Part shown: positions 3,654 through 61,081 of the stretch, in pieces
Layout of the letters: each line of letters begins with the position of its first letter
Numbering within the stretch: the stretch's first letter is position 1
Source of the DNA: Atractiella rhizophila
Lineage: Eukaryota
Assembly: GCA_021432655.1 (NCBI GenBank)
Contig: MU271243.1
Coordinates: 6,374 to 67,454 of the forward strand
Direction of reading: 5' to 3'
DNA: 61,081 nucleotides
Program-made: the position numbers and the translations under genes
Notes under the pieces: generated by a model
Seen by the model: the letters and a program-made list of their open reading frames with translations, nothing else
Told to the model about the DNA's origin: nothing
Database searches by the model: none

Positions 3654-6053
<2,400 letters not shown>

Positions 6054-35799: not shown

Positions 35800-37502
35800 A
35801 TGGGATGGAATGTGCAAAGTACATAGGTCGAGTGCTTGAGGCATTGCTTGCGTGTCAAAGAACACCCAATTTCCCCCAAAATGCTGGCGCCGTGAGCAAA
35901 GCTTCCGTCAGCTCAAATGGTCGAGTCTTTGAAAATCCTGATACTTTGAAATGATTGTGCGTGTCGGATTCAGTTAAGACTCCAATGAAGACGCTACAGA
36001 AAAGGATAAGAGGCAGGACGCTAGACCCAAGTGAGACGCTTACGTCCTGTTGGAACTGGCTGGCACTCCTCGCAATACTTTCATTGCTTGGACTGCCTCA
36101 CCTCCGGATTCTGGATTGAGCAGAAGGGGATAGAAAATTATCTACTTCGGCTGTGAGACACAGTGCAGCTTATGTAACCGGGAAGAAAACTCGCCTTCTC
36201 AACCTTGACGGTTCTTTGAAGGATCTGATATTCTTCTTTATTGAAAAAGCAGGTAGCAATGATGACGCCGACATCTTGGGACACTTCTTGAAGGTGAAGA
36301 ATGAATGACTCGAGATCTGTAGAACTGGTAGTAGCATCGATGGGAAATGGAGATAAGATGCCTACCTGCATTTGCCTTGATTACGAAAGGAAGAGATGGA
36401 AGAGGGTTGTTTTGAAATGCCTGGACAAACAGGCTTTCCAAAAGAAGTGGATCGCAAAAAATCAAAGTATAACCCTTCGACAAGGTAGGGAGAGTGCAGA
36501 GAACGTTGATTATATGCTGATTAGCCACAGGTGTCCCATGATTCTTCACAAAATATACCGGGACATGGTGATCACGAAGGGGCGGTGGGGCAACTGCCAA
36601 CGGGGTGTCCTGTTCTTCTGAATTGACAATGGTCCCGACGGTGGTGGTGGATTGTTGGCGGTTGAGGAAGTCTAGTTTTTCTTCAAGAGCAACAGTCCTC
36701 TCACGTTCACCTTGGAGGCTGAGATAAATCTCTTCAGCTTCTTGCTGGCATTTGGAAAATTCGGCCATGCGATCTAAAAGCTCCATTTCTGTCGCTCGCA
36801 GGCGGCGTTCTAGTTCGGACTTCGCTAGATGATCCTCTTCTAGGCGAGCAATCTCCTTTCTTTGATGCAATACTTCCTCCTCCAACTCCCTCTGCCGTGA
36901 TGCATATCCTCTCAGCCGATCCACTTCTAGTGATAACTCTCGGATGGTTGACTGCAATGTCTGGCGCTCTGTGGTGAGTCGGCCACATTCTTCCCTAGCA
37001 CTCTTAAGATTGATCTGCAAGTCGTCCTTCTCTACGTGATCAATGGATGCCTTCAGTACCAAGAAGTCTACCATCTCCTTGTATGGAAAGGTGGAAGTAG
37101 GTGGGGCTCCCATGTCAAGGACGGAAGTGAGGACTGAGCGGTCTGGATGAGAGCTGGACAGGGGAACGCTGCGATCAGGAGGCGGACTGGACGGGCGCTC
37201 AGCGATCGAGGGGGAAGGACTTGGATGATCAACATCCGTTGAACAGCTCGGCGAGGGTTCCACATCAGTCGTAGTTGGGGGCTGCGTGACTACATCCACA
37301 ACAGCAGTCTCAGGAGTAATGTCCTGGGGTTTTGGTGAATTGACCCTGCCGAACTTCGAGGAAAAGGAGTCGAAACGCTGGCGCAAAGGAGCTGAACCAA
37401 AAACGTGCCTCTGGGAAAGTCATGAGAATATCCTCAGCAGGTGATAATGCTTACACGCAGTCGATTACAAGTCTCTGTAAAACTGTGGTTAAGGGTAGCC
37501 AT
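35800..37502 (-). CDS. Hypothetical coiled-coil protein (3' end approximate)
   Basis: MATLNHSFTETCNRLR splices in frame to the 382-aa ORF 36238-37386, which has a long heptad-rich segment; further short exons follow. Confidence 0.6.
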
Positions 37503-39250: not shown

Positions 39251-42200
39251 ATGACTATGGCCTCACCAATTCACTCGCCCGTCCGAAATGTGCTCCAGCT
39301 CTCGCCTTCCAGCCGCCCTCCCGCGGGTTACACCTCCCGCAGTGTATCCAATCCCATCTACGCCCTCAGCGCAGAAACAGTCAGCAGCGGTAGCTTCTCG
39401 TCCTCAAGCGCGCGCAGGGAGACAACCGGCGGCTTAGGTCCAGGTCGCGGCTTTCGAAGTCGTGAGTCTTCCCCCTGACTCTCGTGGTTGTGACCGTTGT
39501 GACGAGGAACCAGCTCCCTCTGAGTCCTGGGATGACGATTTCCTCTTTCAGAATCCTTCACCAAACCCTTCACCGCCACGGGCGCGTGCCACTACGCAGT
39601 CGTCACGCTCCTCACACATTTCAAAGGAACAAAACTCGTCACTCCTGCCATCTTTCCTGCCGAACGATTCCTCCGGCTCTCTCCCCGCGTTCGAAGAAGA
39701 TGAAGGCACGTCGCTTTCTCCAACCTACGACGAACATTGACCTAGAGATTGAGCAGAGCCGCACTGGGATTCATCGCCCGAAACAAGTGATGTCGACGTG
39801 ACCGCAACCCCTCCGAGCACGAAACTCCTTTCCACGCCGAAACAGCCTCAAAACGACTCTGCAGCAGGAGGCTCAGCTAGCGGCGGTTCGTCCAGAATCC
39901 CAGGCACACACTCACCGGTTTCCAAAGTTACGGATAAATCAACAGCATTCACCACAGAGGCAGCGGGCTTGCATAGTCCATCCCGACAGAATGGAAGCGA
40001 AGCAACTCCTCGAAAAGCCCACGACCTGTTTGGACGACGCGTGGGAGAACGAGAGCTCCCTCAGATTAGGGGAAGAAGTGGGAAAGAACTGATCACTCAA
40101 GGTACACACGAACTGAACACCACTGCAAGTGGGAGCAAGAAGAGTAGCTCTGGGACTGACGATATCATTGATTGGGAAGCTGCTTTTGAAGCACAGGAAC
40201 GAGCCGAACGGGAAGTCGAGGCTTCGTCGGTTTTCGAAGTCGCGTCAGACGGTAAGCGAGAAGCGCTTACATCCCAGAGTTCCATCAGTATTCCTCTCAG
40301 CCAGGTGGGGGATGATCGCACGGACGAAGAGGGAAAGCCCCGAAGAAGGAAACTGAGGAAAAAGACACGCCCTCCACCAACTAGAAGCAGCGGACCGTGG
40401 AAGTCTTCGACATCACTAGTTCTCAGTGAGGACGATGAGGATCCCTCATACACCCTCCTTGATGAAGTCACAAGTTCAACCAGTCGTTCCAGCGTCGGTG
40501 GTTCGTTGTCCGGAACACATATGGCATTTGCTGAGGACAGTGGGGACGAAGGGGTACGACGCCGAAGAAAAGAACCCACACCTCCCCCTGCTGGACTTCT
40601 GAGCGGGAAGCGCAATGTATCTCGGTCGAGTCTAGCCGCAATTCAAGAACATCCACCAGCCGCCGCCCGCCCAGGGTTCAACCGAGACGTTACTCCCCCG
40701 CCAAGTGCCCAGAGTGAACATGCGCTGCGAAGGCTGTCTGCCAGTGCCGGCAAATCACCGGGTAGCTCCCGTCGAAATTTCACCGGAGTTTTCTCTGACA
40801 TGCTCCATCGTTCGAGCTCTTCACGCAAAACAGATCAGTCACCTTCCAATTTCGTTGGGAGTTCACGAGTCGTACCTTCCGCTTTCCCCTTCCAACCGCA
40901 GCGTAAATTGCACAGACACTCCTCTTCTGCCAGTGACATCCCACCATACTCTACTCCCTCCGTCCTTCCTGCTGTGACTACCTCCGCGAGCTCTTCTTCA
41001 TTTTTTTCCAGAGCAAAAGTTTTGTCGAAGTCGTCCTGGGAGAAGTTCGGAAATGCACCCTCAGTTCCATCCCCTCCTCTTTCTCCAACAACATCTGCGA
41101 CTTCAGATATTTTGACCCCACGTCCATCTGTCAAGCGTACAAACTCTCTCGGCCGTGCGGCGCGTGCCTTAGTTGGTGTCCCTCGACCTATTTCTATTGT
41201 TTCCTACATCTCTGAATCTGCGACGATACGCGCGACATCGCCTGGGGGACCCAACGCCGCTCCTACTAACCAATCCACTGTCACTACATCAACTCGAGTC
41301 CCTGATCAGAAACGGCGCCAAATGCAGCATGCTCCTTCACTATCCTTGGATATGAAACCAGGTACTGCACGGTCCATACCATCCCCCACCAACCAATCGC
41401 GCCCGCAAACCGCAATCCCGTTCGGTCAGGTGGATGACGAAACTGTCGAACGAGAACTCAATCGCAGACATTCGCACACCCCGTCAGCAGCCAATGGCGG
41501 CGAGTTGAGAATCCCCAAACACATCACAAGCAAATCAGTCCGGCTCGAGGAGGACTTAGCAAATCTAGCCGCTTATCAGACTGGTGTTCGAGGTCTGTTC
41601 CCATTTCGTCTTGTCGATCTGACTGACCCTTCCCTCAGACCTCATCTACCTACGTGGGTTATACGACGAGCTGATTGCGGACCAACTTGCATCCACCACC
41701 GGAGTAACCGGTTCGTTGGCCAAGGGTAAACGTAGTTTACAGATGCTACAGAAACTAGACTACGATAAATGGTTTGAGGAGGCAGAGGTCTTAATCGAAC
41801 TGGGGGATGGCAACAAAGCCTCGCATCGCGAAAGAACCACTTCTTTACTCCCCGACCCGGATGAACCCGTAGGCGTTTCTGATAGACAAGCTCAGAACCA
41901 TTCGACTGTAGACTTGAACCAGGAAGGCGGGAAAGAGCGCAAACGTGATATACTCGAAAATATTCTATCCCCCCGAAAAGGATCTGATATGGAAGCCACA
42001 AGTCGTCCTTGTACACCTACAAATCCGCGGCCGTTCCCTCTTCAGGCTAAACCCTCACTCTCAACAATATCGTCCGTTCCGTCCCCGTCCCGAGTGGGAG
42101 ATTCTCCATCGAGAAGCAAACTTCGTCGTGTCAGCAGAGCAGGTATATTTGGAATTCAGCAGTTCCTAAAAACACTCAAGCTTCGAGCGAACGAGGAAAA

Positions 42201-42805: not shown

Positions 42806-44402
42806 TCAACGTGAGCGTTTAAGAACCTTCCATGTGAGTTCGACGAGGGCATCTCGCGCAGTACTTTGAGGTAGGGTATCCAAAATGCAACCTCTGGCCA
42901 ATGCCGCGTGGTCCTCTGCTAGCTCAAGGGTGCGCTTCGGCCCTGATGAGGCCAAGACCAGTTCTCGAGCCTATTATCGTCTTCAAAATTGCGAAAACAA
43001 TCGGTTAGAATCTCACCTTCTCTACGTCTCCTGGCTTACTAAATTTGCGTTCAACCATGGGTCCCAACTCTGCATATTCTTCCCATGCGAAGAGAACTGG
43101 TGCTGTGGCGAGGCCCAGCTTTAAGTCCGCACCGTCGGACGGCTTTCCCAGGTCGGCTGCTGAAGCAGTGTAATCCAACAAGTCGTCGATCAACTGTGAC
43201 CAATCTGCATCATCATCTTGTCACGAGAGCAACGTAGTCATACCTGAAATGCAATGCCCAAGTTCCTACCAAATGAAAAGGCAGCGTCCTTCACTGATTC
43301 CCCAGCCTCCCAGCCCTGTCGGAGACCGCATCCTCCTAGAACAACGGCAGATCGCGCGGACTTAGCTATCAACGAAGCAGTCTTGAGATATGTCTTTTCC
43401 ATATAGTCGTTAAATGTATCCGCTGTCAAGCCAACTGCAGTTGATCGAATAGGGATCATTGCCGAAAATTTGTCCACCCAGTTCTTTTCTTTGTGTGACT
43501 TCGCTGTATGTCCTTTCATTTGCATTACCTCACCTTCCACCAGATTGGCAATACAGCTCGCAATAAGTTCGACTACTTCATTACTCCCTAATCGACTCAG
43601 TGCCATCGAAGCTCGCGCCAACATGAAATCACCAGCAAGGATAGACAGTTTGTTGCCGAATAGTGAAGGAGACGACGGCAAATCTCTTCTTGTATCTGAC
43701 TGGTCAATGACATCGTCATGGAGTAAGCTCGCCACGTGAATCATTTCTATGATCTCCGCCAGCCGAAGTTGGGTTGGCAGGATAGTCGACGTTAACACTC
43801 CTGGTGTAAAAGTTGGGGGAACGGCTGGCTTGAGAGCAGCACTCGCCAGGGTTTGCACCGCATCCTTTGCGTGCTCAAAGGGATTCTTGCGCCAGAACGG
43901 ATCGGAAGGATTGACATCCGTCAGAACGGAATGTTCGGATAGTGGTGCATCGATCGATGTCTCGCCACGCGTTGCTTGCCGCTGCGACAGAGAGAAAAAG
44001 TGGGGTGACAGACCGTTCGTTGCTTGCGCTATGAGCAGAATTATCAATGGCCTGAAATGCTTCCCCTCCGCTACAAGAGTTTGTGAATGGATACTTAACA
44101 TCAGTGTAGAACACGCAGTGCTTACTCTGAAAGTAATACTTCGCAATGGTGTCCAGTGCAGGATGCCCGCTACCGAGAAGGGTGCGCACATTGGCCCGGA
44201 GTGAACCTAGCTCGTTGGCGACAAGGCTGAAGGGATCCAAAAATGAACTCTCTCCGGCATTCCTCCTCACTGAACTGGGACGATCGTACTTAGTGAGCGG
44301 GTTAAGGTGGTGGAGAGCATTGGACCAAGAGTGCCGCCGACAAATGACCTGAAGCTCTGTAGGTAATGTTTTGACAAGGTTGCGAGAGCGAGCGGATAAC
44401 AT
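42806..44402 (-). CDS. COQ1: Mitochondrial polyprenyl diphosphate synthase Coq1
   Basis: GKHFRP, EMIHVASLLHDDVID (FARM), GNKLSILAGDF, KTYLKTASL, GIAFQ|LIDDLLD (SARM), DLKLGLATAP. Confidence 0.95.
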
Positions 44403-44639: not shown

Positions 44640-46900
44640 AGAGATGCACAGATAGCATTGCCATTTTAGGACTCTGTGTTGGGAGGTGTGGAGTGTGGAA
44701 ATTATGTTGCAGGCTCACATCCTCCCGGTGAGTGTCATTGTTATGTTATGCAACACTTGCATGAGCAACAACCTTGGTTCTTCATCCTCAAGCGTTGGGC
44801 TAGTGTTTGTGGGGAATGAAATCTTTGGCACTTGCCCATAGTAGTAAATACTGTCTGGAAGCGGCCATATGTTGGCATACTTAAGCAATAAATTCCTGGT
44901 TATAAGGAGCAGCACTACCTTTGCAATCAGTGATGGGCTTTTAAGGGCTAAGTGCACTGTATTTGCTATTGCCTTCTTTGCTGCTTCCTTGTGCAGGTGT
45001 TCATACACAGCACAATCTACCATGACATTGATGGTTCCCCTGCCTCTCAGCACCATGTGCATCCTTTGCCCAACTGCACTGCTCTGGTCCCACAGTGAAG
45101 TATGGCCTGGCTCAACTGCTCTACAAAATGGCACCAGTGTTGTCATTATGTGAGGCATTGCCAAGCAAGCACTAACGTGTTGGAGTGAGATTTATCCCTC
45201 TAAGACAAAAGATTGATCACTTCAGTGTATTAACAGCGGTACAGTACAAAGATGTCCACATGCTATGAGCCATGCATGAGTATGTTATCATGCAGTTTTC
45301 ATCTAGTGTGGCAGGAGTAACGTACCATGATGTGTGGGTTCTTACAGTTGTTGTGTACAGAAGTCTATCTTGCAAGTGGAAGTTTTGTCACCGTGTGAAA
45401 AGGAGTTAAAATGATTCAGATTCTTCTGTACAAAGCCAGGCTGAGAAAACATGATTTCACCTTTTTTTGAGAGTTACAACTTAAAATGTGAAACCTGTCA
45501 TGATGATTCCCAATTGCAAAATCCTGATTATGTGTAGAACCGGAATATGTGTCCCTTAAGGTGCGGAGAACGTGTTTGGACATCAGAGCTGTCCATCCGC
45601 AGGCTCATTCGAATGCGACCTTCAATTTTCTTCAACCCGAACTTGCATTATTCCCTCAGACTCCAAGCCATATTCTCCCATATTCTCCCATACCGATTTC
45701 TGTGTTCAGCGAACAGACACCTGGATCCAGCAAACTGGTCACCACAAGGGTTTTGCACTCAATTTTGTGGAGATTTGCGCCACATCAGGCTGAAGTGGTC
45801 GACCTCTGACCTCGAACTCAGATATTGTTGTTGAATGCAAAAATGTAGTAATGATTAACAATTCATTTTGAATACAATTTAGGCTGATCCAGTGTCTAAG
45901 TATTAGGGCAAACACTATCTGCGGTCACTGATGGGCGATGCGTCTGTAGTGGAGGTAAACCTAAGAGAATAGTATGGCATGAGAAGACTAACCTGTAGTG
46001 GAGGTAAACCTAAGAGAATACTCTAAGGCCACCACCGCTACAACTCAATGTATATATACATATGTAAAGGCACTGCCATAAACTGTAACATATGTTTCTT
46101 GAAACATGTAAGATAACTAAATCAGGAAGGTAATAGAGGGAATACTCGCTGAGCAGTACTAGTGAGAAAGGATGATAAGGCGAAAATGGGGACAGTGCAG
46201 ACCGGCGAAATGTATAAGGTTTGCTATGCGGCGATTTGTGTGAGAAAGGGGAAAGCGGCGGACAGCGCGGGCATGAGCAAAGCGGCAATGGGTAGACACG
46301 TGATCCTATGACGTGGTGAAGTAGGTCAGGTGACTGCATATAGTGCATTTCGGTAATGCACAGGGGCAAGCCTGATACTAGGAAATGGAATGTGTCTGTC
46401 TCCGAAGCCAAAAAAAATAAACTAAAAGGTATAGGTATGTGGAAACTTGAAATGTAATCACATCTTCCGACATTAATACCCAATGTGTTTTCCTGTTAAG
46501 TAGCTTGAATGTAACGTATGTGATGCTGTTGTTGCCCTGTATAACGTGTATAACGTATTGGATTAACCAATGAGCTAAAATAACTAGTCATTTACCAACA
46601 CTGCAGATTAACCCTTTGTACCCAAGTTCAACGTAACAATGAGTGAACATTAAAAAAGTGGAGCCAAAAATACTTACCTTCATATATCAAAAATACAATT
46701 TGCTATTACTTCACCATTATCCATCACATTTCGGGAGTGGGTAGGGCGAACCCAAGGCTTTAGAGCCAGCTACAATGATGTATGATCTGTAGTAAGAATG
46801 AGCAAATATTAGAAAAAAGTGGAGGACAAAATATGCACCTTATGAACATCAAAACATGGAATTCCCCATTGCTTCACCATTATCCTTCGTATTTAGACGT
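44640..46900 (-). pseudogene. Degenerate, CpG-depleted relic (probably a decayed transposon or gene)
   Basis: Few CpG and abundant TG/CA, broken ORF fragments (44715-45164), remnant splice-like signals and degenerate repeats; no recognisable domain. Confidence 0.35.
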
Positions 46901-46949
46901 GAGTGCGGTAAGTGATGGGACTGAGGGGTAGATTTTACTACATATAATG

Positions 46950-47695
46950 TGTTAGTTATAGTGTGTTGTTTTGGTTACCTGCCTCTCATGACTCGTATGA
47001 GTCATCACTATGCCTGTAGTTTAGTTCTGCCTAGCACTGTTGGTGCTCACTATTGACCACCAACTACGGCTAGGTATGTCTCTCTATACTACACTAATGT
47101 CATTATTGTTGACCACCAACCACTCCTAGCCTTAGATCCTTACATGATAGTGAGAGCTGGTGGCTAGAATTACACTTTGCCACACCCATCACCTTCTCCC
47201 TCCTCCAGACCACATTTTCACACCTCCTGCACTCAAATTTCACTCAATTTTAATGATCAAGACAGATCTGTGATCCTCAGATGTTCCTTTACCACCTCAG
47301 GAGGTGTCTGCTTACTCAGGAACCAAGAAATATCGAAATCTATCCCCTTACCACCCACTTGCTGCCTCAAAACACACTTTGCCACCCTGGCCTCAAACTT
47401 TGACAAATTTGGACGTTATAGGGCTCATTTTGATCGTGAAACACTGCACTACAACTTTACTAGGAATCATCTTGGTCACAAGCGAAAATTTTGAGATAGC
47501 CACTCCATCACCTTCTTCATACCCCCAAAATGCAATTTTCGACTTTTTGAAGACAAATCTGGTCTGATCTGGACAATTTTATCGCCATCGCATTCACAAT
47601 GGGCTATTCTACTATCCTACAACAGATCATCTTGATCAGAAGAGTCAAAATTTCGAAATTTGCCACTATCACATCATCATCACATCATCCCCTAC
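46950..47695 (+). mobile_element. Family-B copia 5' LTR (about 46950-47144), degenerate PBS and leader, interrupted by element A
   Basis: TGTTAG...CCTTACA followed by TGATAGTGAGAGC (a variant of the element-A PBS). The LTR matches the complement of about 54310-54486, and leader 47576-47694 matches the complement of 59036-59150. Confidence 0.8.
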
Positions 47696-47916
47696 TGTTG
47701 GATTAGGTGTTATATTTTGTGGTCTTGTGTTGTGTGGTCAGCCATCTTTGTTGTGTTGGCTTCATTTCGGAATTTTAGCCCCCTAGGGGGCAGTTTAGGC
47801 GGTCATCATCTTTCACCGCCAATCTCTGTCCCCTAGGTATGTGTTTCCCTATCAATGTCATCATCTTTGACCACCAATCTCTGTCCCCTAGCTCCATCCA
47901 GCATCAGATTCTCTCA
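47696..47916 (+). repeat. 5' LTR of element A (221 bp, TG...CA)
   Basis: TGTTGGATTAGG...TTCTCTCA; homologous to 57800-58019 and to the reversed copies at 54797-55014 and 55816-56022. Confidence 0.93.
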
Positions 47917-47929
47917 TGGTAGCGAGAGC
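47917..47929 (+). promoter_or_regulatory. Primer-binding site (probably initiator tRNA-Met type)
   Basis: TGGTAGCGAGAGC directly after the LTR's terminal CA; TGGTAGC complements the GCUACCA 3' end of many initiator tRNAs. Confidence 0.7.
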
Positions 47930-48103
47930 GGTGGCTAGGGATTGACAGATCAGTTTTGCCACCCACTTGGCTGAAAATTTTGATCACTCAGCCATCCATT
48001 GTCCAATCGGTTTGAAACTTTGGGATCATAAACGAGACCCCCTTACACCTATATCCACCCATTTCTACGAAGATCGGACGATCCAAACTCGAATTTTATC
48101 ACC

Positions 48104-51100
48104 ATGGCTGAAGAAAGTAAAATTTTGATTACCCCCCTTGGAGAGAAGAACTATGGCACCTGGTGCATTGATATGCAGGCGGAATTGATGAGAAAGGGGT
48201 TATGGGAGATAGTCTCTGGAGTAGAGACCAAACCAGAAGGTTTGAAGGAGCAAAAACAGTGGCAAAAGAACAGCTCCAAAGTGGCTGGGATCCTGTTCCT
48301 TAGCCTAGAAGCGACCCAGAAAGCCCATGTGGTCTCTGTCCTTCAAGATCCAGTCAAGATCTGGTCTACCCTTCAAGAAATCCACCAACAGAAGCGCTCC
48401 TCAACTCGTTTCACTGCCCTCAACACCCTCCTTGCCCTCCAGAAGAAGGAAAGCGAATCCCTCATCACCCTGTGTGCCAGAAGCGACCAGCTACTACTGG
48501 ACTTCACCAACACACTGTCCAAGGACTACTCCCTTGATGATTTGAAGGAGGATCTTCAATCCTTCGCCCTCATTCGTTCCTTAGGCCCAGAATATGCCGG
48601 TTTCGTCCAGAACTTAACCCTGATGACATCCACTGACCTCCAATCGATCAAACAAGCATTCTACTCCATCCAAGCCACCAAGAACTCGGAGGAAGCCATC
48701 TCCAACACTCAAATGGCAAATCAGGTGTCCAGCAGCAACAGAGGACGAGGAGGATGGCATCCCAGAGGTGGCAGAGGTGGTGGAAGAGGAGGAACTGGAG
48801 ATTTTTCGCAATCTGTGTGCAACTACTGCCACAGGAAGGGCCACTTCGCCTCCCACTGCCCAGAAACTGCTTCTGGACGCAATAGGATCGAGTTGGAGAA
48901 GTACAGATCGAAGTATGGCAAGCTGGAGGAGGTGAAGGAAGCCAAAGTCGAAGGGGGAAAGCCAGAATTCGCTGGAGAGACAAGTTATGCAGCGGTAGAT
49001 GATACCATTAGTCGCCAGAAAGCTGGGACTGACTGGATTATCGATACAGGAGCAACTTCATCAATGACTCCACATTCCCACTTCTTCAAATCCTATCAAA
49101 AACACGTTGTACCCATCAGAGTTGCGAATGGAGAAGTGATCTGGTCTACTGGGATAGGAGAAGTGGTAATTGAGGCGAAATTGGAGGATAAAAAGTCGAA
49201 GGTCACCATTCACAATGTCCTACACGTCCCCAAATTGTGCAGCAATCTCCTATCTGTTTTCAAGCTCACAATCTTCGAAGGTGTAACTGTGACCATCATT
49301 GGGAGCAGAGTACGCTTCCTCAAGGCCGGAAATCCCTGTTTCACAGCGACAGTTGATCACAGGAGAGGAAGCATGAGTGCCATCATTGATGGAAGAACAC
49401 TCATGGCCTCAGAATCCGTTGCACACGCCTCCACTACCCCTCTAAACGCTTCCCTGTGGCATAGAAGACTTGCCCACTTGAATCATGAAGATATAAAGCG
49501 AATGCTGAAGAAAGGACTCGTGAAGGGAATGATTCTGGACTCAGAAGACGCTCCTGACCCCATCTGTGAGCCCTGCATCGCTGGGAAGCAGCACAGGATC
49601 TACAACAAGGCTGCAGAGAATAGGGAGACGGAAATTTTAGGGAGAATCAGCTCAGATCTTCATGGACCACTCCCAGTTGCTTCAAGAGAAGGATTTCGCT
49701 ATTGGGTGACATTTATAGACGAGGCAACAAATCACTGGACCATTGCCTTTCTGAAGAAGAAGTCAGAAGCCCCGCAGCGCTTTAAGGAGTATAAGGCGAT
49801 GATGGAAACCCTGACTGGAAGGAAGATCAAGAGATTCAGGGAGGACAAAGAAAGGGCCTATTCCTCAAAGGATTTCGATGAATACCTACGAAACCGTGGC
49901 ATCCAGCGCGAGAAAACCATCAGGAACTCTCCCCATCAAAATGAGAGAGCAGAGAGAGCAAACAGGACGATTCAAGAGGGTATGGTGGCGATACTGGAGG
50001 AATCTGGTTTGCCACTATTCCTCTGGCCCCACCTTGCTTCGGCTGTTGTTCACATCAGGAACAGATCCCCCTCTTCCTCCATCAATCACTCAATTCCCAA
50101 CACGAAATTAACAGGAGAACTGGTCGATATTTCGCGTTTTAGAGTCCTAGGCTGCACTGCCTATGTCCAAGTTCAGAAGGACGAAAGAAGCCACAGTCTG
50201 GCATCTCATACACGAAGATGTGCCTTTATAGGTTACTCTCCCAGCGCTAAAGGCTGGGATTTCTGGGATCCAGTATCTAAGAAGGTCTACACACGAGATA
50301 TTGCGAAATTTGACGAAAGGGAAATGCTTTGCAAAGTCAGGAGGGAGGAAAACGCGTTGGAACCGCCTCAGGGACCACTGGACGAGTGGAAAGAACGTCA
50401 GGATCAGGTGGGAGAAAGAAAGAGAGATGGTCCTGCCGTCCTTTTGGATTTTGGTGAAGATGAAGAGGAGGAGGACGTTTTGAAAGGTCAGGGAGAGCGG
50501 GAGAGACTCAGGGTGGAGTCTCCAAATCATTTTGAAGGATTAAGGGACGAAGGAGAAAATCAGGAAGCGGAGCAAGAGAGGGAAGAAGCACCAGACAGGC
50601 CACAGGCTGCTCCAGAGCGGCCAGTAACACCCCCACTACGTCTTGTTCCTCAGAGAGACCCTTGGACTGGACTAATGATGGTGGGAAGACAGACAGAATC
50701 GCCTGATCCTCTCCAAATGACGCCTCCTCATGCTATCCCTGCCCCTGCAGCTCCTCCACCAGTCGAAAGACGCTATCCTGAGCGACAGAGGAGACCACCA
50801 GTCGAGTTCTGGAAGGCACCCAAGCTGCCCCAACCACAGGAGGAGAGCTCTGAAGACGAGTTGGCAATGCTGGCTAAGGATTGTTGGATTATTACAGAGC
50901 CTGAAGCATTGGAGTGTGGTTTTATGGAGGTTACTGAACAGGCCATGGCTACAGGAGCGCAGGATCACATCCCCAAGACATATGCAGAAGCCATGAAGAC
51001 CCCAGAGGCGAAACAATGGCATGAGGCGACGGTCAAGGAGGTTCAAGCACACTTGGACAACAAGAGTTGGGTGCTAGTAAAGCCACCAAAGGGAGCAAAG

Positions 51101-52546
51101 GTCATTGGATCCAGATGGGTGTTTGCTATCAAGAAGAAGTCTGATGGCTCAATTGAGCGTTATAAGGCTAGATTCGTCATCAGGGGCTTCTCCCAACGTC
51201 CTGGCTTCGACTTCTTCGACACCTTTGCATCCACAGTGAAATGGGCCACCCTCAGAACCATCCTTTTGCTTGCCTGTGTCCTAGACATGGAACTGGAGTC
51301 TGTGGACATCTCAACCGCTTTCTTGAACGGAGAAATGGATGCAGAAGTCTATGCCAAGCAGCCAGAAGGTCACCCTCAAGGTCCTCCAGAATACGCTCTC
51401 AAACTCCTCAAAGCAATCTACGGCACCAGGCAAGGAGGACGTCAATGGCAGAAGAAACTGGACAAGGAGCTCGTGTCTATGGGCTTCACCAAAGTCAAGT
51501 GTGACAGCAGTCTCTGGATCTACTCAAATGGCGAAGTCAAGGTGATTGTGCCAGTCTTTGTGGACGATATAACGATTGCTAGCACGTCCAGAAGCGCTGT
51601 GGAGGAGTTCAAGAAGGAGTTGAGCAAGAGATTCAAGCTGAGGGACCTTGGAGCGACAGAATTTTTGCTTGGAGTGAGGATTAGGCGTGATAGGAAGCAG
51701 AAGAAGATGTGGTTGGATCAGGAGCAATACGTTAAGGACCTTCTCTCTCGACAGAAGATGGATAGCTGCAAGCCTGTGCTCACTCCCCTCAGCGTAGGCC
51801 ACGGCTTATCGAAGCAAGACTGTCCTCAGACCAAGGAAGATGAAGAAGAGATGCGAACCATTCCCTACAGTCATGTCGTCGGCTCTCTCATGTACCTTGC
51901 AGTTGCCACACGCCCTGACATCGCCCACACTGTTTCTGTCCTCGGAAAATTCCTCTCCAATCCAGGCAAGAGGCACTGGGAAGCTGCCAAACACCTCATG
52001 CGCTATCTCAAGGGCACTCAAGACATGTGCATCAAGTACTCTGCCACAGATTTTGATATCTCTCAACCATTCAAGGCATATTGTGATGCAGACTTTGCGG
52101 GTTGCAAGGATACTGGCCGGTCCACTGGAGGATACCTCTTAACTGTCGGAGGAGGAGCAGTTAGTTGGAGTAGCAAGTTGCAGTCTCTGGTGGCACTCTC
52201 AACCACAGAGGCAGAGTACATCTCAGGGGTATCAGCAGGACAAGAGGTGGTTTGGCTCAGAAGTCTTCTGCAAGAGATTGGCTTCGCTCCAAAAGGTTCG
52301 ACAACACTTTTCACGGACAGCAACAGCGCTTTGCAAGTCAGCAAGAATCCTGAGCACCATGGACGCATGAAGCACTTGGATCTTCGTTTCTACTGGCTCA
52401 GGGACACAGTAGAATCTGGACTCATCACCCCAGTCTTCTGCCCTGGCGAGTCTATGCCTGCAGACCTCCTCACCAAGGCTCTACCGGTTGCTGGAGTTGT
52501 AAAATTTCGAGAAATGATGGGTCTGCGCCCCTACCCAAGTGTATGA
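48104..52546 (+). CDS. Copia Gag-Pol polyprotein, 1480 aa (Gag, zinc knuckle, PR, IN, RT, RNase H)
   Basis: CNYCHRKGHFASHC; WIIDTGATSSM; LWHRRLAH...CEPC; SDLHGP...ERANR; RYKARFVIRGFSQ; VFVDD; YCDADFAG, STTEAEY, MPADLLTKAL. Integrase precedes RT, the copia order. Confidence 0.98.
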   Translation: MAEESKILITPLGEKNYGTWCIDMQAELMRKGLWEIVSGVETKPEGLKEQKQWQKNSSKVAGILFLSLEATQKAHVVSVLQDPVKIWSTLQEIHQQKRSSTRFTALNTLLALQKKESESLITLCARSDQLLLDFTNTLSKDYSLDDLKEDLQSFALIRSLGPEYAGFVQNLTLMTSTDLQSIKQAFYSIQATKNSEEAISNTQMANQVSSSNRGRGGWHPRGGRGGGRGGTGDFSQSVCNYCHRKGHFASHCPETASGRNRIELEKYRSKYGKLEEVKEAKVEGGKPEFAGETSYAAVDDTISRQKAGTDWIIDTGATSSMTPHSHFFKSYQKHVVPIRVANGEVIWSTGIGEVVIEAKLEDKKSKVTIHNVLHVPKLCSNLLSVFKLTIFEGVTVTIIGSRVRFLKAGNPCFTATVDHRRGSMSAIIDGRTLMASESVAHASTTPLNASLWHRRLAHLNHEDIKRMLKKGLVKGMILDSEDAPDPICEPCIAGKQHRIYNKAAENRETEILGRISSDLHGPLPVASREGFRYWVTFIDEATNHWTIAFLKKKSEAPQRFKEYKAMMETLTGRKIKRFREDKERAYSSKDFDEYLRNRGIQREKTIRNSPHQNERAERANRTIQEGMVAILEESGLPLFLWPHLASAVVHIRNRSPSSSINHSIPNTKLTGELVDISRFRVLGCTAYVQVQKDERSHSLASHTRRCAFIGYSPSAKGWDFWDPVSKKVYTRDIAKFDEREMLCKVRREENALEPPQGPLDEWKERQDQVGERKRDGPAVLLDFGEDEEEEDVLKGQGERERLRVESPNHFEGLRDEGENQEAEQEREEAPDRPQAAPERPVTPPLRLVPQRDPWTGLMMVGRQTESPDPLQMTPPHAIPAPAAPPPVERRYPERQRRPPVEFWKAPKLPQPQEESSEDELAMLAKDCWIITEPEALECGFMEVTEQAMATGAQDHIPKTYAEAMKTPEAKQWHEATVKEVQAHLDNKSWVLVKPPKGAKVIGSRWVFAIKKKSDGSIERYKARFVIRGFSQRPGFDFFDTFASTVKWATLRTILLLACVLDMELESVDISTAFLNGEMDAEVYAKQPEGHPQGPPEYALKLLKAIYGTRQGGRQWQKKLDKELVSMGFTKVKCDSSLWIYSNGEVKVIVPVFVDDITIASTSRSAVEEFKKELSKRFKLRDLGATEFLLGVRIRRDRKQKKMWLDQEQYVKDLLSRQKMDSCKPVLTPLSVGHGLSKQDCPQTKEDEEEMRTIPYSHVVGSLMYLAVATRPDIAHTVSVLGKFLSNPGKRHWEAAKHLMRYLKGTQDMCIKYSATDFDISQPFKAYCDADFAGCKDTGRSTGGYLLTVGGGAVSWSSKLQSLVALSTTEAEYISGVSAGQEVVWLRSLLQEIGFAPKGSTTLFTDSNSALQVSKNPEHHGRMKHLDLRFYWLRDTVESGLITPVFCPGESMPADLLTKALPVAGVVKFREMMGLRPYPSV

Positions 52547-52784
52547 GGCAGTTATGGGGCGCAATAAAACTCTGTCCTCCTTCTGGGGGTTATAAGACGC
52601 CGCTCTAAACGGTACGAGGATCTCTCTACTGGTTTTAGGCAGTCAACTAATATGTTTTCTTTTTGCCATGCTATTTCATGCTGTCTTTATTCGGTGGGAC
52701 CTTTGTTCGGTGGCTATCTTGGATGGTTCTTGGATTTGGTGGGAGCCTCAAGAGGTGGCTGCCCAGGTGGGAGTGTTGGATTAG

Positions 52785-55700
52785 CACAGAACCTGTACCT
52801 CAACCTCAGTCACCTATAGAGATGCCGTAAGGAGTTGCCGCTATACCTACGTCTCCAGATACGTGTTGTTGGTCTTCCAGTAGGTGTCCCAGGAGGTCTC
52901 ATGCAAGAGTTCAATTAGTTCCGATAGATACCGTGTTCCGTTCCTCCTGCAGTTACCGTCTTCTTTGAGCTATTCCTTGAACAGCTATACCCTAAATTGT
53001 TCTAGTTCTCGCTGAGATCAGACACCTAAATGAGCTTCCCCCTGTAGTTTCATGAACAGGGCCAGAAACACCTACTATAATGCTAGCGATCGTGTAGTTT
53101 CCCACGACATCTCCTGAAGTTCTCCCTCAATCCCTTCGCTAAGTTTGAGTCTCTGGAACTTGGTTGCCAATTTAGGATGTACCCCAAGCATAATCCTCTC
53201 TATCTTTCGCTTGTTACTACACCAACCTGAGTTGTTGTCATCCAATTCCTGGAGGGATCTTGCGTTTGATCTACCTGGTAACGTTGGGACTGGTGGTTGA
53301 GGAGAGTTGGATCCTGTGCACAAAAGGAGTCGTTCGGATCGTAGAAACTGGTGTTTGTTTCCTTGTTGTTCTTCTTTAGGTCGTAGTTAGGTAGAGTGTC
53401 CGTTGCAGCAACCGAAGGTACTTGGTGAACTGGTAGAAGGTTCAATCCAAGAGGTAGTATAGCGAGTACGTCAGGTATTCCGGAACCTTTCATGGAGACT
53501 GATTGAGGACTCCTTTCGTTAACAGGTTACCAAACAACGGAGCAGATATTTGCAGTGGGTTATCGCTTTAGGAAGAGAACTTCGTTGACCCTCGCCAGGT
53601 ACTTCTAGACTCGAGTAGGAAGGATTTTAAAGGCAGAGGGATAAGAGACGTCGGAACAACATCTAGGATACGACGAAGGGTCGCTACGTCCCGAGTGTCT
53701 ACCCCAGTCCTCGCAGAAGACTCAGGTCTTAGTAAGGAAAGTGCTTCGGGAAAGAAGTCGTTCGTGTAATGTAGAAGTCGTAAGTTGACCCGTTCTTAGA
53801 GGACACGGTGTCCCTTCGCAAATCTTCTCATCACCGATGCGTAGGCGTTCCAGGTTTAGGGGAGAAGTTCTGTCGTCCTCGCGAGAGGTCAATAGGTTCT
53901 TAGTACTCGTGAGTACCAGCTTACCTTGTAGACCTGAAGCGAAAATCACCTAGTCCCTACAAGGTCTCTACTCGTTCTAGTCATGAGACGACAGGTCCAC
54001 AGTTATACGGTCGTCTGGAGGAGTGGTTCCGTGAAGGTCATCGGTCGCACCTGTTCAAAACTCAATAGTCTAACGCTGTTGGATGGGTTCACAGACTCCG
54101 TGAATACCCCGCGTTATTTTAAGGAATAGGAGGAGACACCGGAGTATTCTGCGGCGAAGTTCGCCATGGTCCTGGAAAGGTGAAGAGGTAATCGTTTTGA
54201 TTCTACGAAAGTTGCACTATAGCTATTGTAAACTTCTTAACACCACCCTCTCAGTACCTAAATCACCGTCGTAGCTCTTCGACGGGTCGTCAGGGTCGAT
54301 CAACACCGCTGATTACCAAGTAGATGGCGAGTACTGAGCATACTGAGGTCAGTTGATACCGAAAAGACGGATCCTGACAACCCGATAATAAGTGGGGTTG
54401 GTCGAAGGTCATGCAGCTAGATATGAAGAGGTTACACGAATAACGCTGGTGTTGGTCGAGGATCGTCACCTCTCACGGGAAAATGTGACTAGTGTGTGAC
54501 TCTTTTTAGAGCACGGAGGAGCAGGTGGACACGGTGTTCTCTGTGGTTGGAGGACTAGGTCGACTGACGAGGAGGACGGTTACTCACACTTCTCCATAGG
54601 AGGCTCATCTGGACGGTCACGGAACCTAGACGTTTCAGGTCTTGTTATACGGAACTTACCGACTCTCTAGTCAGCTTCAGTACTCCGTCTATATGAGCTA
54701 CGTGTAAGACCCGGAACCTCTACTCTCGTCTTCCTCAAACCGTCGAAGGAGTCACTGAGAACGTTCCTACCTTTCCATTAAAAGGCTCCTGTCACAACTC
54801 TCTTAGACTACGACCTACCTCGATCCCCTGTCTCTAACCACCAGTTTCTACTAATATAACTATCCTTTTGTGTATGGATCCCCTGTCTCTAACCACCAGT
54901 TTCTACTACTGGCGGATTTGACGGGGGATCCCCCGATTTTGAGGCTTCACTTCGTTTGTTTTGTCTCCACCGACTGGTGTGTTTGTATTGTCTTTATATA
55001 GTGGATTAGGTTGTGAGGGTGGACCGGTCGGCGGAGAACTTCGAGGGTGGTTTAAGCACTTGGTAGTTCTTATTGGTAGGTTACTTCGAGGGTGGCTTAC
55101 TTCCGTAGTACTTCACTGTAGTATGTTTCTTTTGTATAATCAATTTACAGATTTTGGTCATCTGTCTAGGAGCATGGCGAATTTCGCCGCAGAATATTGG
55201 GGGTCTTCCTCCTGTCTCAAACTAACGCGGGGTATTGACGAAGTATGTGAACCCAGTCCCCGCGTCTGGTTAGTAAAGAGCCCTAAAATATTGAGGTCGT
55301 TGGTTTCCGGAACTACTCCTCCAGACGTCGTTATCTGAGCGGTCCCGTCTTCCGACCCGACTACTCAGGTCTAAGATGACACAGGGACTCGGTCATCTTC
55401 GCTTCTAGGTCCACGAAGTACGCAGGTACCACGAGTCCTAAGAACGACTGAACGTTTCGCGACAACGATAGGCACTTCGTTCACAACAGCTTGGAAAACC
55501 TCGCTTCGGTTAGAGAACGTCTTCTGAAGAGTCGGTTTGGTGGAGAACAGGACGACTATGGGGACTCTACATGAGACGGAGGCACCAACTCTCACGGTGG
55601 TCTCTGACGTTGAACGATAGAGGTTGATTTACGTTCTCAATTCTTCATAGGAGGTCACCTGGTCGGTCATAGGAAGTTGGGCGTTTCAGACGTAGTGTTA

Positions 55701-56022
55701 GACGGAATGACTAACTCTCTATAGTTCTTAGACTCCGTCTCATGAGCTACTTGTACGGGACGCACGAGATCTCTACGCGTCCTCTACGAAACCGTCGACG
55801 GGTCCACGGAGAACTACTCTCTTAGACTACGACCTACCTCGATCCCCTGTCTCTAACCACCAGTTTCTACTACTGTAACTATCCTTTTGTGTATGGATCC
55901 CCTGTCTCTAACCACCAGTTTCTACTACTGGCGGATTTGACGGGGGATCCCCCGATTTTGAGGCTTCACTTCGTTTGTTTTGTCTCCACCGACTGGTGTG
56001 TTTGTATTGTCTTTATATTGTG
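52785..56022. other. Mirror-oriented block 1 (reversed but not complemented copia sequence)
   Basis: The complement read left-to-right from 52785 gives VLDMELESVDISTAFLNGDMDAEVYAQQPEGHPQGPPEY... (family-B RT). 54797-55014 and 55816-56022 read backwards give family-A LTRs, and 55015-55815 read backwards gives the A-type RT/RNase H tail, 3' UTR and PPT. Confidence 0.97.
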
Positions 56023-56270
56023 NNNNNNNNNNNNNNNNNNNNNNNNNNNNNNNNNNNNNNNNNNNNNNNNNNNNNNNNNNNNNNNNNNNNNNNNNNNNNN
56101 NNNNNNNNNNNNNNNNNNNNNNNNNNNNNNNNNNNNNNNNNNNNNNNNNNNNNNNNNNNNNNNNNNNNNNNNNNNNNNNNNNNNNNNNNNNNNNNNNNNN
56201 NNNNNNNNNNNNNNNNNNNNNNNNNNNNNNNNNNNNNNNNNNNNNNNNNNNNNNNNNNNNNNNNNNNNNN
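56023..56270. other. Assembly gap (248 N)
   Basis: Run of N. Confidence 1.
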
Positions 56271-58019
56271 CCACAGTGAAATGGGCCACCCTCAGAACCA
56301 TCCTTTTGCTTGCCTGTGTCCTAGACATGGAACTGGAGTCTGTGGACATCTCAACCGCTTTCTTGAACGGAGAAATGGATGCAGAAGTCTATGCCAAGCA
56401 GCCAGAAGGTCACCCTCAAGGTCCTCCAGAATACGCTCTCAAACTCCTCAAAGCAATCTACGGCACCAGGCAAGGAGGACGTCAATGGCAGAAGAAACTG
56501 GACAAGGAGCTCGTGTCTATGGGCTTCACCAAAGTCAAGTGTGACAGCAGTCTCTGGATCTACTCAAATGGCGAAGTCAAGGTGATTGTGCCAGTCTTTG
56601 TGGACGATATAACGATTGCTAGCACATCCAGAAGCGCTGTGGAGGAGTTCAAGAAGGAGTTGAGCAAGAGATTCAAGCTGAGGGACCTTGGAGCGACAGA
56701 ATTTTTGCTTGGAGTGAGGATTAGGCGTGATAGGAAGCAGAAGAAGATGTGGTTGGATCAAGAGCAATACGTTAAGGACCTTCTCTCTCGACAGAAGATG
56801 GATGCGGCAAGCCTGTGCTCACTCCCCTCAGTGTAGGCAACGGTTTATCGAAGCAAGACTGTCCTCAAACCAAGGAAGACGAAGAAGAGATGCGAACCAT
56901 TCCCTACAGTCATGTCGTTGGTTCTCTAATGTACCTTGCAGTTGCAACACGCCCTGACATCGCCCACACTGTCTCTGTCCTCGGAAAATTCCTCTCCAAT
57001 CCAGGCAAGAGGCACTGGGAAGCTGCCAAACACCTCATGCGCTATCTCAAAGGCACTCAGGACATGTGCATCGAGTACTCTGCCTCAGACTTCGATATCT
57101 CTCAGCCATTTAAGGCATATTGTGATGCAGACTTTGCGGGATGCAAGGATACTGGCAGGTCTACTGGAGGATACCTCTTAACTATTGGGGGAGGAGGAGT
57201 CAGCTGGAGCAGCAAGTTGCAGTCTCTTGTGGCACTATCAACCACGGAGGCAGAGTATATCTCAGGGGTATCAGTAGGACAAGAGGTGGTTTGGCTTAGG
57301 AATCTTCTCCAAGAGATTGGCTTCACTCCAAAGGGACCAACAACGCTTTACACGGACAGCAACAGCGCCTTGCAAGTCAGCAAGAATCCGGAGCACCACG
57401 GGTGCATGAAGCACTTGGATCTTCGCTTCTACTGGCTCAGGGACACAGTAGAATCTGGACTCATCGCCCCAGTCTTCTGTCCTGGCGAGTCGATGCCTGC
57501 AGACCTCCTCACCAAGGCTTTACCAGTTGCTGGAGTCTCCAAATTCCGTGAAATGATGGGTCTGCGCCCCTACCCAAGTGTATGAGGCAGTTATGGGGTG
57601 CAATAAAATTCTGTCCTCCTTCTGGGGGTTATAAGACGCCGCTCTAAGCGGTACGAGGATCTCTCTAGTGGTTTTAGACAATCAATTAACATGTCTTCTT
57701 TGTGTCATACTATTCAACGCTGTTTACATTCGGTGGGAGCTCTCTTGGACGATTATTGGATTTGGTGGGAGCTTCAAGAGGCGACTGCCCAGGTGGGAGT
57801 GTTGGATTAACTGCTAAATTTCATGGTGTTGTCTTTGTGTGGTCAGCCACCTTTGCTGTGTTTACTCACTTCGTAGTTTTTCTCCCTAGGGGGCAGTATT
57901 GGTGGTCATCATCTTTGACCACCAACTCCTGTCCCCTAGGTATGTGTTTCCTCATCAATCCAATCATCTTTGACCACCAACTCCTGTCCCCTAGCTCCAT
58001 CCAGTGTCTATTTCTCTCA
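56271..58019 (+). mobile_element. 3' part of a second family-A copia copy (frameshifted RT-RNase H, PPT, 3' LTR 57800-58019)
   Basis: Homologous to 51231-52784; 1-nt deletion near 56804; AGGTGGGAG followed by TGTTGGATTAA...TTCTCTCA. Confidence 0.95.
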
Positions 58020-59035
58020 CCTTAACATACTGTTCTTGACCCAACCACATCATTCTTCGCTTTTTATCCCTCCTAATACGAACCCCAAGTAGGAATTCCG
58101 TTGGTCCAAGGTCTCTGAGTTTGAATCGCTTCCACAACTCCCTCTTGAAGTCCTCTACAGCACCCTTTGATGTGCTAGCGATCGTAATATCATCCACAAA
58201 GACAGGGACAAGTACTTTGATGTCCCCCTTTGAGTAAATCCACAGACTAGAGTCACTCTTGATCTTCTTAAATCCCATAGCAACAAGTTCCTTATCGAGT
58301 TTCTTCTGCCATTGACGTCCTCCTTGCCTTGTGCCATAGATGGCCTTGATTAACTTCAGAACATACTCTGGAGGACCCTGTGGATGACCTTCTGGTTGTT
58401 GTGCATAGACCTCTGCATCCATATCACCGTTAGGGAATGCCGTAGAGATGTCCACTGACTCCAACTCCATGTCCAAGACACAAGCGAGCGAAAGAATCGT
58501 CCTAAGTGTCGCCCATTTGACCGTAGATGCGAAAGTATCAAAGTAGTCGAATCCACGGCGTTGAGAGAACCCCTTGATGACGAATCTGGCCTTGAAGCGC
58601 TCAATAGAACCATCCGACTTCTTCTTAACCGCAAACACCCATCGAGAACCAACGATTTTTGCACCTTTAGGCGGTTTGACCAGAATCCAACTCTTGTTGT
58701 CCAAGTGAGATTGAATCTCCTTCACTGTCGCTTCATGCCATTCCTTCACATTAGGGCTTGCCATCGCTCTTGAATATGACTGAGGGACCTCTACTCCTGT
58801 TGCTGCACTCATGGCATGCTCTGTGACAAGCATATAGCCGTATTCCATCGCCTCTGGCTCAGTGAGGATGTCACATTCCTTTACCAACATCCCAAGCTCG
58901 TCTGTTGACCCTTCGTCGTTGTTTTGAGGTGCTTCTGGGGTCCTAAATCTGTCTACAGGTCGTCCTCTACTCGTAGAATAAATTCTTGAAGGCCTGTTGA
59001 CAGGGGGAGGTGTCGAAGCTGCTGGAGGAGGTTGA
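58020..59035 (-). mobile_element. Family-B copia pol fragment (IN-RT linker and RT), cut by the family-A LTR
   Basis: ORF 57991-58890: ERFKARFVIKGFSQ, VDISTAFPNG, VPVFVDDIT; ends at GQEQYVK, where the LTR begins. Confidence 0.95.
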
Positions 59036-61081
59036 TAAAATAGCGGTAACCTAAGTGTTATCCGATAAGATGATAGGATGTTGTCTAGTGGAACTAGTCT
59101 TCTCAGTTTTAAAGCTTTAAACGGTGGTAGTGTAGTAGTGTAGTCGGGGATAGTGGGAAAGAGGTAGTGTAGTCCCCTAGAATCCTGAGTTGGTGTCCCA
59201 GATCCTCCTACAAACCCTACCTTTACCGAGAATTACCCAACCTTAAACGACCCGACTTGTCAGAACGACGTCGTTTACTACAGTGATACGGAGTTCGTTC
59301 GGAACTCACCTATCGTCTTTGACCACGTTGAGTAGTGGTGTACAGAGGACGGTAGCGGTCAGATACGAACGTCTTGGAGTAGTCTTGTTCCGAAATGGGG
59401 ATGGTCCTCATCGTTTTCAGGCTCTTTTACTAAACCTCACGACACGGTGATGGTCGTTCTAGGTACTTCGGTTCAATCCCCCTCGTTCTTCTTGTGATGG
59501 TAATGGTAGACCGTCTATAGGTTGTGCGGGGGAATTCGCGATGTTGTTGGAGAGATGGTCAGAAGTTCGAGTGTTAGTTGTTCCCTTACTCCCAGAGGTA
59601 ACGGTTCGATGTTGTTCGACAGAGATAACCCACCCTCGAAAGAAGGTCCTAGTTTTTGAGACGTACCATGACGGTGAACCACCCTCGATGTTCTCTACCT
59701 TCGGTTCCGCCCTTATGAGTTAATCCCTTGTGTGAAGGACGAGAGTCTTAACACGACCTTTACGTCGGTGTGACGGATACCTACGGAGTGACGCCTTAAA
59801 GTCTTGTGATCCCCTGTAGCATTAATCCTCCTGTAGTTCGTAGACTTCTGGTTGTTTGAGACAGTTGATCCATACTCTAAGGGCTCGTTACGTAGTCGAC
59901 CCTTGGTTGTATCCGAGACAGTTGTTCGAGTCGTCTCTGGTCCGTCTTCCTTCAGTGAGTCCCATCTTAGTCGAGTCTGGACGTACCTGGAGAAGGTCAG
60001 TGAAGGTCTCTTCCTATAGCTATAACCCAGTGGAAGTAACTGCTTCGTTGTTTAGTAACGTGTTAACGGAAGGAGTTCTTCTTTAGTCTCTCGGGTCTTG
60101 AGAAGTTCTGAAAGTTCTTAACCCATCTCTTACAGTGACCCTTCTTCTAGTTCTTCAAATCTCTCCTGTTCCTTCCGCGAATAAGGAGGTTTCTTAAGCT
60201 AGTTATGGAGTTCCGGACACCATAGGTCGCGCTTGTCTACTAGTCCTTGAGAGGAGTGGTCTTACCGTCCCGTCTTGCTCGGTTATCCTGCTAAGTCCTC
60301 TGATACCAGCGGTACAAACTTCTTAGACCTGAAGGAGAGAAAGAGACCGGTAGATAGCGAAGTCGTCAGCAGGTGTAAGCGTTGTCTAGAGGGAGTCGAA
60401 GCTAGTTGGTACGATAAGGGGTGTGCTTTGAGTGACCTGAATGAGGTTGGTAGAGTTCTAAGTCTTAGTAACCTACGTGACGGATGCAAGTTCAAGTCTT
60501 CCTACTTTCCGGTGTGTCGAATCCTAGAGTGTGAGCTTTTACGCGTAAATATCCGATAAGGGAACGTCGCTTTCCCACCCTCAAGACCCTAGGACAACCC
60601 TTCTTCCAGATGTGAGCTCTACAACGGTCTAAACTACTCTCTCTCTACGAGACGTTCCAGTCCTTCCTCTTCTAATGCAACCTTCTTGGTGTCCCTGGTG
60701 AACTGCTCACCTTCCTCGCAGTCCTAGTCCACCCTCTACCTGTCTTATCACGAGGTCGGCGAGGAGGCCGGTCCTAAAGCGAGCTGGTGTTACTGCTTCT
60801 TCTTCTACCTACCTAAGTTGTCGGTCCTCGTGGAGGATGTGGAGTCCTTGTTGGGTCTGGCGAACCTTATGTCAGAGGTTTGTCTAAAGTCGGGGAAGTC
60901 CAACTTCTTCTTCTTCTACTTCTTTCTCTTGTCAGAGGTCTGGGGTACGTCGAGCATGGACTTGCCGGATTTTGTGGGGGTGGAGCAGTCATGTGGTACG
61001 TCTCTCTAGGAACCTGTCCTCAAGTGTACGGATCTAAGGGTCTCAGAGGTCTAGGGGAGGTCTACGCGGGTTGTTGCGGTC
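59036..61081. other. Mirror-oriented block 2 (family-B leader, degraded protease region, integrase)
   Basis: The complement read left-to-right from about 59960 gives GRISSDLHGPLPVTSREGYRYWVTFIDEATNHCTIAFLKKKSE...SPHQNGRAERANRTIQE...KGWEFWDP; 59036-59150 is the complement of 47576-47694. Confidence 0.97.

Follow-up and report, generated by a model that had tools for sequence, protein, structure and literature searches.

How can the last 2 kb of a stretch of fungal DNA resemble a retrotransposon only when each base is complemented and the written order of the letters is kept? The question arises at positions 59036–61081 of a 61,081-nucleotide stretch of contig MU271243.1 from Atractiella rhizophila (assembly GCA_021432655.1), and this whole stretch is called the window below. 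A sequence written backwards without complementing, when read on the minus strand, equals the sequence complemented without reversing; we refer to this as the complement-only, or mirror, reading. The last 2 kb of the window is a piece of a copia-type fungal retrotransposon with its letters reversed and no swap of strands. We consider it highly probable that 59036–61081 is not a physical arrangement of DNA, and that it is the mirrored 5′ part of a minus-strand Ty1/copia element, produced by an in-silico error.

A retrotransposon piece that is read only in mirror orientation

In a four-way translation of 59036–61081, frame 3 of the complement-only reading contains 6 stops in 681 codons, located at 59182, 59410, 59476, 59809, 59821 and 59911. 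The longest open stretch in this frame is 389 aa (59914–61080), and the frame runs up to the window edge, where it terminates ...PESPDPLQMRPTTP. Each of the six ordinary frames of this segment contains 29–54 stops, and their maximum open stretch is 112 aa. An ordinary inversion is not what is found here, as the reverse-complement frames contain 29–39 stops and yield no homology matches. The segment, referred to as block 2, has no strand; complement-only from left to right, it reads as the 5′ portion of a copia element that is degenerate and belongs to a family designated B. Its left limit is known to about ±3 nt, with mirror homology to 47573–47694 starting at 59033–59036.

Our reference for the contents of block 2 is element A, an intact copia on the plus strand (47696–52784) with a 5′ LTR at 47696–47916, a polyprotein at 48032–52546 and the first 11 nt of a 3′ LTR. 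The polyprotein carries the Pfam domains Retrotran_gag_2, Pol_BBD, gag_pre-integrs, rve (538–633), SH3_retrovirus and RVT_2 (1010–1253). Domain limits in block 2 were obtained by aligning its complement-only frame to A and transferring the Pfam limits of A. The block opens with a leader-like stretch in the complement-only reading (59036–59151); these first 116 bases of the block are 92% identical to 47576–47694, the leader of a B-type LTR copy. A degenerate equivalent of the Pol_BBD protease beta-barrel lies at 59308–59574 (22 identities among the 70 of 79 positions that align to A), and a degenerate equivalent of the GAG-pre-integrase domain at 59740–59910 (13 identities among the 51 of 62 positions that align). 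The equivalent of the rve integrase core (59965–60252) aligns to A over 96 of 96 positions, 73 of them identical, and the equivalent of the SH3-like integrase C-terminal domain (60436–60648) over 71 of 71, 56 of them identical. From there a proline/acid-rich linker extends to the window edge (60649–61081). Judged from its sequence, the integrase retains D, D and E at the positions that we take to be the catalytic triad. A preliminary description of this DNA had read the block, complement-only, as a leader followed by a noisy protease and a clean integrase; this was accurate. Regarding gag, homology to A aa 1–311 was detected neither in block 2 nor in the leader of the B-type copy at 47138–47694.

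The identity between B and A is uneven. It amounts to approximately 25–30% over 59242–59960, assigned to the protease/pre-integrase part with all six stops, and to approximately 76–79% over 59965–61071. This pattern reflects either uneven decay or a recombinant element.

Another LTR of the B type, with a PBS-like site, is present at 46944–47160. Together with its leader it forms a plus-strand segment of normal polarity (46944–47694), in which the LTR reaches to ~47137, and which is broken off where A inserted, at 47695. Its LTR is distantly related to the LTR of A, its PBS-like site resembles that of A, and its leader of ~560 nt is without gag homology. The B copy to which block 2 belongs carries no LTR within these limits of the window: on the 3′ side the copy is truncated at 58020, and its 5′ side would be found past block 2. 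In the domain order PR-IN-RT and in the way the elements interrupt each other, the locus is like the nested Ty1/copia elements of Agaricomycete-type fungi, but it differs from them in the degeneration of copy B, which carries 6 in-frame stops and a reverse transcriptase (RT) cut at 58020, and in which no gag homology was found.

Homology searches were run on the mirror reading and on the sequence as written. With tblastn, aa 312–898 of the element-A polyprotein align to complement-only bases 207–2036 of block 2 with 49.7% identity (E 3.5e-166), whereas the same polyprotein has no match to either strand of the block as written. As an outside test set we used 120 copia polyproteins, collected with the neighbouring normal RT as query. 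At a threshold of E<=1e-5, 110 of the 120 match block 2 in the mirror reading and none match it as written. The corresponding counts are 120/120 and 0/120 for a second mirrored segment in the window, block 1 (52785–56022). Of the best-matching outside relatives, those that have a name are for the most part Agaricomycete proteins. Over the whole window, copia homology in the ordinary reading occurs only at 48032–52543, 56273–57582 and 57976–58956, and in the mirror reading only at 52757–53254, 53477–54059, 55235–55920 and 59281–61065. Self-alignment of a complement-only copy of the window (E<=1e-10) gave 36 mirror-type nucleotide HSPs, all 36 of which join one side inside a block to one side outside the blocks.

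An independent view of polarity comes from k-mer usage and needs no homology. The k-mer usage of real DNA has a polarity, which is destroyed by reversal. We trained Markov models with k = 3–5 on both strands of the gene region 1–46000 only. The normal retrotransposon parts score +18 to +30 per kb in these models, block 1 scores −24 per kb and block 2 scores −36 to −41 per kb. In leave-one-out scoring of 1-kb bins, the normal bins have a mean of +24 (sd 9.2) and 53 of the 54 lie above zero, the sole non-positive normal bin being 46001–47000 with a score of −1.9; the bins inside blocks 1 and 2 score −23 to −49 in all five cases. The window has no further mirrored part beyond these two blocks.

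These results bear on whether the mirror relation could be real or accidental. An E value of ~1e-166 excludes chance similarity for block 2. A real rearrangement has no result of our analysis in its favour. Natural mirror repeats do exist; they are polypurine/polypyrimidine motifs. The term has the same meaning in a published abstract (PMC9171763). Block 2 has the reversed k-mer polarity of its host genome, which speaks against a rearrangement, and so does general knowledge of DNA chemistry. The two strands of DNA are antiparallel, and inversion, recombination and copying always give the reverse complement; we know of no replication, repair or recombination chemistry that joins DNA in parallel polarity. 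The mirrored blocks must therefore stem from software, and an origin of the mirror relation in chance or in a real rearrangement is for practical purposes refuted. The preliminary description had left a choice between a hidden error and an event. The error stands; the biological event falls with the mirror-only homology and the lack of a known chemistry.

The remainder of the window is ordinary in its polarity. Recognizable genes are an AAA ATPase with a Vps4-like C-terminus (3657–4997), BOP1/WD40 (9826–10842), a chitin synthase (28067–29281; Chitin_synth_2) and a polyprenyl synthetase (43241–44206), all of normal polarity. The large open reading frames at 39753–41726, 36241–37419 and 24561–25733 have no Pfam match. 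Other open stretches in mirror frames, 130–189 aa long, were considered as extra blocks and rejected, as they have no copia homology and lie in bins of normal polarity, save 46001–47000.

Continuity with the adjoining reverse transcriptase

To the left of block 2 lies the RT of copy B at 58020–59035, which is on the minus strand and of normal polarity. It corresponds to A aa 920–1235 with 76% identity and matches RVT_2 (listed as PF07727) with an E value of 1.2e-52. At 58020 this RT is truncated by the LTR of A′ (56271–58019, plus strand), a second copy of the A sequence from RT to the 3′ end (A aa 1068–1504) that has its LTR at 57800–58019 and is of normal polarity. The minus-strand RT text QPPPAASTPPPVNRP begins at 59034, and element A has ESPDPLQMTPPHAIPAPAAPPPVERR; both match what the preliminary description gave. 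It had also seen no N gap on the left of block 2, and indeed the window contains no N run other than 56023–56270.

Since the minus strand of a reversed block spells out the complement-only reading, the far end of a reversed block 2 would meet position 59035. The integrase piece of block 2 stops at A aa 898, at the window edge, and the adjoining minus-strand RT begins at aa 920. Reversal of block 2 had been proposed to give one minus-strand element, and the two parts are colinear at the protein level, across A aa 898/920. Copy B then consists of A aa 312–898 followed by 920–1235, with the integrase upstream of RT in one polyprotein, which is the Ty1/copia arrangement.

The junction itself can be placed within narrow limits. 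The unaligned linker is 77 nt long in B compared to 63 nt in A, and as the linker of B already has this length, between zero and a few bases would be missing beyond 61081. Limits of exactly 59036–61081 leave the frames of block 2 and RT 2 nt apart; the frames agree if the block runs to 61082 or begins at 59034. Among the outside relatives, identity to the RT piece reaches 56% at most, compared to 76% for element A; being less similar than A, they do not allow the junction to be placed to the residue. For the 28-mer immediately to the left of 59035/59036, no exact match exists in a metagenome contig collection.

In its geometry block 2 is like an ordinary inversion or a misoriented contig, in that the break points are sharp and a flip in place restores colinearity with the flank. 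It is unlike an ordinary inversion in that the strands are not swapped, and the arrangement is invisible to a six-frame search and impossible as DNA.

A second mirrored block at the N gap

Block 1 (52785–56022), also without a strand, is a single unit of 3238 nt reversed in place. It abuts the start of the N run at 56023–56270, which consists of 248 N and is the sole gap in the window, and position 56022 is the final base before it. The left junction of block 1 falls within an LTR. The 5′ LTR of A starts TGTTGGATTAGGTGTTATATTT (47696 onward). At the 3′ end of A, TGTTGGATTAG (LTR nt 1–11) is found at 52774–52784, and there the text breaks off. Read backwards from 56022, the sequence is GTGTTATATTT, which is the LTR from nt 12 onward, and the rest of the LTR is 92% identical over 208 nt. 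Block 1, the 3′-terminal piece of its contig, is reversed with single-base exactness.

Two copies of the A-type LTR are present in block 1, together with fragments of copia and an RT piece of B-like type. When reversed, the block reads as an LTR, an A-like 3′ internal piece (89% identical to 51967–52784), a second LTR and then the remainder, in which copia fragments in both orientations are mixed and the B-like RT piece is found (94% identical to 58020–58481). A target-site duplication of A was looked for behind the LTR copies of the reversed block, and none was seen.

The RT of copy B (at 58020) and the B-like RT of block 1 (at 53249) lose homology at the same base (CCTTAAC...), and their flanks differ. 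The shared end is either a common ancestral truncation or the natural end of the coding part of family B. No RNase H equivalent was seen for the B RT copies. On the other side of the N run, the first 500 bases after the gap (56271–56770) are 99–100% identical to A 51231–51730, and the identity beyond them is 87–97%. The near-identity after the gap could be due to recent gene conversion, or to a chimeric or collapsed contig start.

The junctions of the two blocks also bear on an alternative in which nothing was reversed. A plus-strand element could have been complemented in place from a break point on, in which case block 2 would run well past 61081 into a mirrored RT. A slip in colour-space decoding is one possible source of such an error. 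The complement-only reading is what is directly seen, and complementing in place would extend to a contig end, as block 1 does and block 2 probably does. However, for block 1 this explanation needs the 3′ LTR of A to be cut after nt 11 and, in addition, an inverted LTR at the far end to be cut at nt 12. For block 2 it needs a window that ends by chance at A aa 898 next to a neighbour that starts at aa 920. Reversal in place accounts for both LTR nt 11/12 and aa 898/920 without coincidence; we therefore reject complementing in place, which we regard as very improbable.

With reversal in place as the preferred reading, the anatomy of block 1 also suggests where block 2 ends. The end of block 1, at the N gap, coincides exactly with the end of a contig; by analogy, block 2 probably stops where the contig or record does, at or near 61081. 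The preliminary description expected normal polarity to resume just beyond 61081, with the leader and the 5′ LTR; we rate this as less likely than was thought there. The last 42 bases of the window have no exact match in three public contig collections (genome, viral and metagenome).

Origin and consequences of the mirrored blocks

The two blocks share one anatomy. Both are joined to their left flank without a gap, and the right end of block 1 is at a contig end, as that of block 2 probably is. This common anatomy agrees with the earlier suggestion of a systematic cause. The most economical explanation is a fault in software that joins or extends sequence, which would arise for instance during contig merging, gap closing or scaffold-to-FASTA writing. 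It might take either of two forms: a piece that needed to be reverse-complemented might only be complemented, or an extension might be written out in back-trace order. Block 2 would then end, like block 1, at the end of a contig or record, either at 61081 or no more than a few bases away. We see the chances as evenly divided that the fault is systematic in the strict sense, with every piece that was flipped on joining or extending being complemented and not reversed. Full-text searches of the literature returned no published description of such an assembly fault; the phrase “reverse-only orientation”, which was considered as a precedent, means the reverse complement. Upper/lower-case marking that could show filled-in sequence is absent across the window.

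The same transformation is used on purpose elsewhere. As a decoy, the Dfam authors employ genome sequence that is reversed and not complemented, since it “theoretically removes true TEs” (PMC3531169). The blocks are like a decoy of that type: composition and low complexity are kept, and ordinary homology is lost on both strands. The reversal might postdate the public record, for example through a decoy or test segment inserted during preparation of the window. Such sequence is a standard decoy (PMC3531169), and exact-match scans of three public contig collections returned no match for the source record, both of which would fit a reversal of that kind. However, block 1 ends at the first N and block 2 at the end of the window, and random planting would ignore contig limits; moreover, the left junctions continue real elements exactly. 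The blocks also differ from a Dfam-type decoy in being unlabelled in a genomic record and joined without a gap to normal sequence, and in that the mirroring is confined to the terminal pieces of N-free runs. We regard a reversal made after the public record as quite improbable.

Under the preferred reading, an in-silico fault in joining or extending sequence, block 2 is a data-quality warning and holds no new biology. Of the final 8.3 kb of the window, about 5.3 kb (52785–56022 and 59036–61081) is invisible to BLAST, HMM searches and gene finders on both strands. In consequence, the retrotransposon seems truncated and the mirrored sequence is taken for “orphan” DNA. Should the fault be systematic, many contig tails in this fungal assembly would be mirrored, possibly along with those of other assemblies from the same pipeline. 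Genes and transposons in mirrored tails would then be hidden from every ordinary homology search, and the repeat content, gene counts and synteny of the assembly would be biased. Two cheap detectors worked here, complement-only self-alignment and genome-trained k-mer polarity, and both are usable on whole assemblies.

The junction also affects an ordinary open reading frame. The minus-strand frame at 57991–59232, which contains the RT, runs by chance 197 nt into block 2, and a gene caller would output from it an RT protein with a spurious N-terminus of 66 residues.
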